Assembly: GCA_016839805.1 (NCBI GenBank)
Contig: JAEOTO010000036.1
Coordinates: 1 to 64,000, forward strand
DNA from: Candidatus Hermodarchaeota archaeon
GTDB lineage: Archaea > Asgardarchaeota > Hermodarchaeia > Hermodarchaeales > Hermodarchaeaceae
Reading direction: 5' to 3'
DNA length: 64,000 nt
Positions 13,663 through 17,137 of the stretch are shown piece by piece. Numbering within the stretch: position 1 is the first letter of the stretch; each line of letters starts with the position of its first letter. The notes under the pieces were generated by a model. The model had not been told where the DNA came from, did not search any database, and saw only the letters and a program-made list of their open reading frames with translations. Made by a program: the position numbers and the translations under genes.

Positions 13663-13829
13663 TCAGAGTAGAATTGCAATTTACCTTTACGCAATACATC
13701 CATAGCAGCGCCTTCATCGCACAAAACCTTTTTAATAAATCATCACGAACGTTTTTTTAAGGCAGAGACGGTGTGAAAGCAGGGGAATTCATACTCTGTG
13801 GAACGCATCTCTGCGTAAGGTGAAAGCTT

Positions 13830-14150
13830 GTGATTGTACTCGAATACCAAGACGGAACATTCATCGAGGCCAAACAAGGCTCCGGCGGAATCCGTTGTGA
13901 AGTCGATAAAACCTCGAAGAAAATCAAAATGATCCTGCCACAGGGAACTAACCTCATTGAACGCCGAACCGCTTTACGATTGGCTGACACCATTGCGCGG
14001 AGTGGATATCTCCTTTCAACCGGCGAACGCGTCGGACAAGGATACGAACTCGTTTTTGACGAGAAAGGCACAGCTATTCCAGAACGACTTAAACAAAGTC
14101 CACGGATCAGCTATAGTACAGCTTCCATTGGCGACGTTGTTGACAAGTAG
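13830..14150 (+). CDS. Single-domain gelsolin/cofilin-fold protein (Asgard ProGel-like actin regulator)
   Basis: AAGGTGA RBS before GTG. Sequence VLEYQDGTFIE...LIERRTALRLADTIARSGYLLSTGERVGQGYEL...IPERLKQSPR matches my recollection of Thorarchaeota ProGel, including a WH2-like C-terminal tail. Confidence 0.65.
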   Translation: MIVLEYQDGTFIEAKQGSGGIRCEVDKTSKKIKMILPQGTNLIERRTALRLADTIARSGYLLSTGERVGQGYELVFDEKGTAIPERLKQSPRISYSTASIGDVVDK

Positions 14151-14237
14151 TTATCCCTCTGTGAAATGGTCTAAGAGTAATAATTGCCCTATCAGATGAC
14201 GAATGGCACGAATGCCCAACCGATTGAGGTGATAGGT

Positions 14238-14414
14238 ATGAGTGAAGAAGAAAACAAGACAGAGTCTCTGACAGATGAATTAAAACGAGAAATAAAAAAA
14301 GGCGCGAAACTCGACCACGCTCCAGAGACTAAACGTCAAGAAGTGGATCTTTCTGCAGAGAAGGCCCTCCTAGAAAAGCTTAGAGCTGAAGGTAAACTAG
14401 AAGAAGAGGATTAG
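14238..14414 (+). CDS. 58-aa microprotein, actobindin/beta-thymosin (WH2)-like
   Basis: GAGGTGA RBS then ATG 14238: MSEEENKTESLTDELKREIKKGAKLDHAPETKRQEVDLSAEKALLEKLRAEGKLEEED. A T-tract follows at ~14444-14451. Confidence 0.65.
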   Translation: MSEEENKTESLTDELKREIKKGAKLDHAPETKRQEVDLSAEKALLEKLRAEGKLEEED

Positions 14415-14484
14415 ACTCCAACTCTGAAAGTCTTCCGTTCCTCTTTTTTTTAATATCATCTAACTTAGACGTTTGACCGATCCA

Positions 14485-16234: not shown

Positions 16235-17137
16235 TTAGGCTGGTGGGAAAGCGACTTCCGCTGCAGCCCCCATCAACGTTTTATATAAAAGATCTTTGTT
16301 TCGTGGATCGATTGCTACCAATCCAATTGTCCGAATTCCTAATAAACGAGCCACAGTGTCGGGAAGCAATGCGTCCTTGAGATCTTGTTTATTTGCTATT
16401 GCCCAAACTAATGCTCCATCAGTCCATTTCTGAATAATTGGAATTAGCTTGCGTGTCGACATGACGTTCTTCAAGGTTGAATCCGTGACCATGATGACTA
16501 CATCTGTTCCACGTAAGTAATCTTTCCACTTGGGCACTAGCAATTCCTGACCTGGGAAATCCCACACAGCTAATTCATAGGGACCAAGTTTAGCAGTTTC
16601 CATTTCCTCAACGTAAACAGCCATGGTTGCGATGTGATTGAGGTCTGCTCGTTGGCTCATGAGCATTTTGAGGATTGTGGTTTTCCCTACTCCACCTTCG
16701 CCGAGGAGGACGACTTTGAGGGTGGAGACAATAGCTTGGTCGAGAATGGGTCCAAGTTCTTGGAATACTGCGGAGTTTCGGTTGCTTTTGAAATCCCACA
16801 TTTGTTTGGCATATTTTTGTTTCATGGTCCGTACTGCAGTTTCGATTTTTTCTTGTAGGATTTCATCTTTATCTTGACGATCGGCAATAAGCACCAGGAT
16901 TAGTTCGCTATCGACGTATTTGTGGATGAATTTCATGTTGTCTAGAAAAATCGGGACCAGGACATCTTCTCCAGTGTCGCGTTCCAGTTGGCGGAGGGAT
17001 TGGATGTACTCGGCAACTATTGGTTGGTCTACTTCGATTGCCCAGTAAGAGCGATGGAAGAGTTTAATGCCGTTCCTTGTTAGTAATAGGACGTTGTGGA
17101 TCAACCCGAATTGCCTCCCAGCTGGTTTACCCCGCAT
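16235..17137 (-). CDS. Longin-like domain fused to an Arf-like small GTPase
   Basis: N-terminal IHNVLLLTRNGIKLFHRSY longin-type start; G1 GEGGVGKT, G3 WDFPGQ, G4 NKQD. Confidence 0.85.
   Translation of the reverse strand: MRGKPAGRQFGLIHNVLLLTRNGIKLFHRSYWAIEVDQPIVAEYIQSLRQLERDTGEDVLVPIFLDNMKFIHKYVDSELILVLIADRQDKDEILQEKIETAVRTMKQKYAKQMWDFKSNRNSAVFQELGPILDQAIVSTLKVVLLGEGGVGKTTILKMLMSQRADLNHIATMAVYVEEMETAKLGPYELAVWDFPGQELLVPKWKDYLRGTDVVIMVTDSTLKNVMSTRKLIPIIQKWTDGALVWAIANKQDLKDALLPDTVARLLGIRTIGLVAIDPRNKDLLYKTLMGAAAEVAFPPA

Follow-up and report, generated by a model that had tools for sequence, protein, structure and literature searches.

Published accounts of Asgard archaea name only profilins and gelsolins as regulators of actin (bioRxiv 10.1101/2025.11.30.690169), and both WH2 and thymosin are unmentioned in PMC13716822. 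Searching the literature, we came across no report of a stand-alone WH2 or thymosin-like protein from these organisms, in line with the original prediction, whose author knew of no free thymosin-like peptide described in archaea. The nearest systems that we found are the linker motifs of the 2DGels and arcadin-2. Asgard 2DGels place central WH2-like motifs (LRRV, LKHV and LVDV) on actin (PMC7444086, PMC9433394). They offer an archaeal LKKT-like motif on actin, as we propose here for a microprotein, ORF-B, but each is a linker of four residues within a gelsolin, lacks the WH2 helix and does not occur as a free peptide. In Pyrobaculum, arcadin-2 docks a helix into the hydrophobic groove of a protein homologous to actin and was proposed to be a functional analogue of thymosin beta-4, although its sequence shows no detectable similarity to those of actin sequesterers (PMC5173319). 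In contrast to ORF-B, the arcadin-2 helix is the C-terminal segment of a larger protein and has the reverse orientation.

Two families allow a closer comparison. Like WH2 domains (PF02205; N-WASP, Spire, MIM), ORF-B has an amphipathic helix followed by G-x-x-L-x-x-[VAT], and its first unit is in register with the first N-WASP repeat, with I, G, A and L identical. It differs from them in being a free protein of 58 aa outside any nucleation factor, in mostly lacking the basic pair and in having no Pfam match at the cut-off. Like the beta-thymosins (PF01290; thymosin beta-4) and actobindin, ORF-B is small, charged and stand-alone, and it has the beta-thymosin layout of a free 40-60-aa peptide made up of helix, motif, extended linker and C-terminal helix. 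The sequence of its linker and C-terminal helix, however, is unrelated to theirs, and a second WH2 repeat of the actobindin type is unsupported.

The window analysed here comprises 64,000 nucleotides from a Hermodarchaeia (Asgard) genome. As originally predicted, it harbors two co-oriented small genes 87 bp apart, each with a GGTGA site, and a T-tract behind the second, and both of the peptide units read in ORF-B were found in their places (table 1). The constant spacing between the GGTGA site and the start codon in the 15 genus genomes favours the 58-aa start of ORF-B over upstream starts; those giving 72 and 76 aa were rejected on the basis of ribosome-binding site spacing. ORF-B is a real gene under purifying selection, with pN/pS of 0.11/0.70 and dN/dS of ~0.06, the latter at a dS near saturation. 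We found 59 relatives in the database, including Hermodarchaeum yapensis and other Hermodarchaeia, and the gene is present in 19/19 family genomes, so that the expectation of a conserved microprotein was borne out. It is single copy except in G093, where a second, frameshifted copy (L001:2387-2559 / L045) is likely an assembly error or a product of a second strain. Within the genus, the peptide is 72-95% identical, compared with mostly 50-60% for the flanking 639-aa gene.

Table 1. Features of the ORF-A/ORF-B locus and related genes. Positions refer to the window unless a genome or contig is given.
Feature	Position	Strand	Remarks
BRE/TATA-like promoter element (T5-AATA; putative)	13719-13738	+	upstream of both genes; near-invariant in 15 relatives, both genera
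Conserved 5' leader	13762-13814	+	closing stem adjoining ribosome-binding site of ORF-A; sequence conservation
GGTGA ribosome-binding site of ORF-A	13819-13823	+	AGGTGAA invariant among relatives' upstream regions
ORF-A, 106 aa	13830-14150	+	GTG start; single predicted gelsolin-fold protein, widespread Asgard family without earlier description
GGTGA ribosome-binding site of ORF-B	14228-14232	+	5 nt ahead of ATG; equal spacing in 15/15 genus genomes
ORF-B, 58 aa	14238-14414	+	ATG start; acidic microprotein, helix-linker-helix (H2-21, H39-50)
WH2/beta-thymosin-like module, residues 11-28	14268-14321	+	amphipathic helix (L15, I19), G22, then L25-D-H-A28
C-terminal helix, residues 37-54	14346-14399	+	most conserved part; common to Promethearchaeaceae peptide C-terminus
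Oligo-T tract, 8 T, likely archaeal terminator	14444-14451	+	T-rich tracts after stop in most relatives
2DGel genes of the host	G000:C27:65854-66459 (just past window end); G000:C23:41060-41677		
L. ossiferum 488-aa tandem array of WH2-like module	L180:1336-2802 = G137:C1:4726360-4727826	-	orthologues in other Promethearchaeaceae
Profilin-like/module fusions, Lokiarchaeia	L186:1339-2094; L190:764-1534	-; +	

A sigma-70 promoter model is inapplicable to an archaeal host. We infer that the T5-AATA element upstream of ORF-A acts as a promoter. Because this element is kept and no TATA-like element is evident in the gap between the two ORFs, ORF-A and ORF-B are likely co-transcribed in Hermodarchaeia. 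One metatranscriptome yielded contigs of relatives over both ORFs, all of them too short to show expression or co-transcription. The leader of ORF-A is possibly a regulatory RNA: its consensus has 12 pairs, only one of them with a compensatory change, and a comparison with Rfam gave nothing near the cut-off. Right behind the stop codon of ORF-A, a short CTCTGTGAAATGG-like motif (14154-14170) is kept in many genus genomes.

ORF-B lies directly behind ORF-A wherever family contigs show that region. Nevertheless, the 639-aa gene and the FMN-reductase gene next to the pair are equally syntenic, and therefore position by itself only weakly supports a functional unit. Moreover, the pairing is not maintained outside Hermodarchaeia, and in Promethearchaeaceae the peptide gene does not adjoin a gelsolin-fold gene. 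With such a distribution, the dedicated unit that had been proposed is not supported. At 1.8 kb from the pair, the window also holds an Arf/Roc-type small GTPase gene with a longin-like N-terminal part (16235-17137, minus strand); Arf GTPase is likewise enriched in the published Lokiactin co-IP.

The AlphaFold model of ORF-B joins its two helices by an extended linker. Among relatives, E14, L15 and L25 are invariant and I19 is nearly so, and column identity reaches 86% in the C-terminal helix region versus 69% in the first module. The first unit resembles WH2 in its amphipathic N-helix, in the leucine placed 6-7 residues beyond the final hydrophobic residue of the helix and in the A/V/T at the fourth motif position, found in 62/62 Hermodarchaeia sequences. 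The two basic motif residues of WH2, on the other hand, are missing here, where the motif reads LDHA; LKKA occurs in 3/62 only, and a few more sequences have one basic residue. The peptides as a group are acidic, with a median net charge of -6; the acidic LDHA is a local state, with close relatives carrying LKKA or LKQA. The C-terminal helix begins 14 residues after the motif leucine, compared with ~13 in thymosin beta-4.

Both units had originally been read as WH2-like. In a tandem of the actobindin or Spire kind, they would occupy the barbed-end clefts of two monomers, and the dimer would inhibit or promote nucleation. The second unit does keep the WH2 register, with L54 at +6 from L48 as L25 is from I19, and the 29 residues between L25 and L54 are close to the 28 that separate N-WASP repeats in the profile alignment. 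Nevertheless, the fourth position of its motif is acidic (E/D) in 61/61 sequences. Some Lokiarchaeia relatives have a long charged helix at this site, lack the motif or, as in Promethearchaeaceae, end there in W-E-E-stop, and the repeat of the arrays described below is the module plus helix. We consider a tandem very unlikely. The fixed A/V/T in the first unit and acidic residue in the second indicate that ORF-B is probably composed of one WH2-like module and a conserved C-terminal helix. Thus, the claimed likeness to WH2 and thymosin holds for the first unit, by way of homologous Asgard subfamilies, but not for the second.

In direct searches, the peptide and the profiles built from Hermodarchaeia alone matched no WH2 or thymosin structure in the PDB. 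Just one of the 59 members matched Pfam WH2 (PF02205; E 0.019), none being above the cut-off, and the family had no match to Pfam Thymosin (PF01290); run on the host genome, neither model found ORF-B. We discarded matches to AIMP1, plectin and GAAD as reflecting helical composition. In the ESM Atlas, a Thymosin cluster came third for ORF-B (0.89), which we take as a lead only. Run against 1.84 billion representatives, the Hermodarchaeia profile returned only Hermodarchaeia members and one unrelated repeat protein, and missed the Lokiarchaeia relatives.

A broader Hermodarchaeia profile picked out small ORFs of Lokiarchaeia, which belong to an extensive family of stand-alone proteins 50-57 aa long. 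Across four families of genomes, it was matched in 124/135, 13/14, 4/4 and 1/1. Comparison of the Hermodarchaeia and Lokiarchaeia peptides by hhalign gave probabilities of 84.8 and 87.3 (E 6.5e-6 and 3.8e-6), and cross-profile median scores were 11-17 bits, values reached by <=0.15% of shuffles and 0 reversed sequences. Additionally, the Promethearchaeaceae members share both ends with ORF-B in hhalign, including a C-terminal EKLxAEGK motif. Homology between ORF-B and these free peptides is supported by such comparisons. Exact look-up located family members in two cultured strains, L. ossiferum (NEF87_002417) and P. syntrophicum (DSAG12_00453); a locus tag looked for in the supplement of PMC9834061 was absent.

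The Lokiarchaeia peptides do match known actin binders. The profile of their larger subfamily had N-WASP WH2 as its first PDB match (3m3n, E 1.7e-6, summed over three repeats). That of Promethearchaeaceae had thymosin beta-4 (4pl8, E 0.035), with the EIEKFDKSKLKKT stretch of which its members align. A cross-Asgard module profile, whose boundaries were chosen with WH2 in mind, found N-WASP or Spire in 6/8 matches, the WH2 domains of both being topmost. Searches of Pfam and the PDB had been suggested as a check, and they gave a divided answer: Lokiarchaeia profiles match WH2 or thymosin, whereas ORF-B itself matches neither. As the Hermodarchaeia peptide and profiles match no such model, the link of ORF-B to WH2 and thymosin is transitive, through the Lokiarchaeia peptides. 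Convergence can produce a likeness of this kind, a short helix followed by LxxV.

The module is also found in tandem arrays of ~490 aa, in which the repeated unit of module plus helix measures ~45 aa. Two Lokiarchaeia genomes encode it in one protein with a profilin-like domain, for which the PF00235 E-values of 2e-4 and 1.3e-3 do not reach the cut-off. The L. ossiferum array scored 96 and 51 bits with the Lokiarchaeia profiles (shuffle maxima 14 and -10) and -26.5 bits with the Hermodarchaeia profile, resembling the Hermodarchaeia peptide only via the Lokiarchaeia ones. We looked for both forms in the published Lokiactin co-IP and proteome, mapping identifiers by numbering offset and mass (Supplementary Table 2 of bioRxiv 10.1101/2025.11.30.690169). 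The array corresponds to GNAMCCOK_04085, five masses matching in gene order, and the free relative NEF87_002417 corresponds to GNAMCCOK_02436 (8.24 kDa, neighbour 24.81 kDa).

The array ranked fourth among the archaeal proteins of the co-IP, with a log2 enrichment over IgG of 4.53 (44 peptides, adj. p 0.002); the actin bait reached 4.44 and 2DGel1 3.97. It is not among the interactors named by the authors (bioRxiv 10.1101/2025.11.30.690169), and the study as published names neither WH2 nor thymosin. The free peptide was detected in 16/16 proteome columns, at a mean log2 of 18.4 versus 21.7 for actin and 19.5 and 17.4 for the profilins. Its co-IP enrichment (log2 0.57, p 0.042, adj. p 0.105, 5 peptides) was under the authors' cut-off and fell between those of two profilins (0.31 and 1.07); it was quantified in 3/3 IPs versus 1/3 controls. 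The cells had been crosslinked with formaldehyde, and probable off-targets are present. The third-ranked protein, for instance, matches by mass and position a protein that we take, from its sequence, to be GTP cyclohydrolase I-like.

Such off-targets among the top co-IP proteins would fit a reading in which the likeness to WH2 is coincidental. ORF-B would then be an acidic helical microprotein with a non-actin target, and the enrichment of the array would be indirect or due to antibody cross-reaction. The same reading is favoured by the lack of a direct WH2 or thymosin match for the Hermodarchaeia family and by the presence of the module within a Thorarchaeia helical-repeat protein with no assigned role. 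We regard it as quite unlikely, however, given that two separately built subfamily profiles have WH2 and thymosin as top PDB matches, that a profilin-like fusion exists and that the iBAQ of the array in the IP is similar to that of 2DGel1.

The upstream gene had been described as resembling Thorarchaeota ProGel (PDB 7C2F), with which ORF-A shares a single stand-alone gelsolin/cofilin-type domain of ~90-100 aa, according to its predicted structure. ORF-A matched no Pfam family, and neither its sequence nor its profile matched 7c2f at E <= 10 in the PDB. With the AF2 model (pLDDT 63.5), the top 20 Foldseek matches were all gelsolin-family (best E 0.006), and a VIA search of 48,161 chains placed 7c2f first (Z 7.0, rmsd 3.5, 66 aligned, 14% identity). 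ESM features also point to gelsolin. On the other hand, ORF-A differs from ProGel by an additional hairpin that follows its long helix, by conserved motifs of its own and by the lack of an HMM match, and its profile did not match L. ossiferum B35_Gel1. Homologues are found in 245/400 Asgard genomes. The predicted gelsolin fold therefore stands, but a sequence match to the ProGel chain does not: ORF-A has, with moderate confidence, a ProGel-like fold, and it belongs to a family separate from ProGel. From the model we infer that it may bind actin.

A host actin is present in the genome; its gene falls on two contigs, and over 300 residues the protein is identical to the complete actin of a relative. 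The host also has two 2DGels and a profilin (C22). Actin of the host type keeps the barbed-end cleft residues and E29/D30, which correspond to residues of rabbit actin. Direct binding of ORF-B to actin seems to us quite probable. With somewhat less confidence, we favour its being a free WH2/beta-thymosin-type peptide that binds actin monomers, buffering or sequestering G-actin 1:1. The N-helix would enter the barbed-end cleft of one monomer, the L-x-x-A motif would lie on the N-terminal strand and the C-terminal helix would serve as a second anchor, the 1:1 complex buffering or sequestering G-actin with modest affinity. The pointed-end contact and sequestering proper are more tentative and may well prove otherwise. 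ORF-A, probably co-transcribed, may work at the barbed-end cleft as well. The acidic character of the ORF-B motif points to weak binding or to a bridging cation; LVDV of Loki2DGel, an acidic motif that binds through Ca2+, provides a precedent applicable to LDHA and LEHV (PMC9433394).

The greater conservation of the C-terminal helix than of the WH2-like part could also mean that ORF-B is a filament-end shuttle or adaptor, in which the module holds a monomer and the helix dimerises or binds another partner, such as the gelsolin-fold neighbour. Transient binding would agree with the low enrichment of the free peptide in the co-IP, and the arrays and profilin fusions suggest assembly-promoting uses. 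Nevertheless, the C-terminal motif is kept in Promethearchaeaceae, in which the peptide gene lies apart from the gelsolin-fold gene; we find a shuttle unlikely and keep to monomer buffering as the preferred reading.

The 3' part of the host actin gene lies outside the window (G000:C32, L015, minus strand) and contains two insertions, of 28 and 30 nt, each of which folds into a bulge-helix-bulge motif; the first is canonical and the second has its 3' bulge inside an internal loop. If each bulge is cut behind its second base, the product has exactly the C-terminus of the relatives' intron-free actin. The insertions are apparently tRNA-type introns in an Asgard actin mRNA, a subject on which a literature search of titles and abstracts returned nothing. 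An interruption close to the N-terminus is apparent in the actin of L053 as well. A 408-aa unannotated ORF (L015:198-1424, plus strand), convergent with the intron-bearing actin 3' end, is possibly a mobile-element or endonuclease gene.

Outside Hermodarchaeia and Lokiarchaeia, a conserved helical protein of ~313 aa in Thorarchaeia (L148-L159, e.g. L150:1024-1965) has an embedded WH2-like stretch, ELKASILGGxSLxKV, at residues ~160-180. Profile search did not find the module in Hodarchaeales (0/22) or other Heimdallarchaeia-named families, and hence a descent of eukaryotic WH2 from the Asgard module is not established, convergence being possible. In 80 further genomes, a module-only profile gave 14 matches at E <= 0.2, about the chance level, the best of them in a DNA gyrase B-like protein. 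In the host, a 71-aa ORF (L117:1507-1722, plus strand; G000:C21) starts with a WH2-like helix that may be due to chance (PF02205 13.7 bits, under the cut-off) and has no clear LKKT motif.

Taken broadly, these data could mean that Asgard archaea have a WH2/beta-thymosin toolkit of their own, homologous to the eukaryotic one and made up of free sequestering peptides in Hermodarchaeia and Lokiarchaeia, Spire-like arrays as major Lokiactin partners, profilin fusions and the embedded Thorarchaeia copy, a reading that we put forward as possible but doubtful. ORF-A marks a predicted gelsolin-fold family new to description, in most Asgard genomes. The array GNAMCCOK_04085, an overlooked top protein of the co-IP, makes a candidate archaeal actin regulator directly testable. 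If the toolkit reading is true, the free peptide and the WH2-like arrays would add a monomer-buffering, possibly nucleating, layer that was thought to be eukaryotic, and WH2-based control of actin monomers would be older than eukaryotes.
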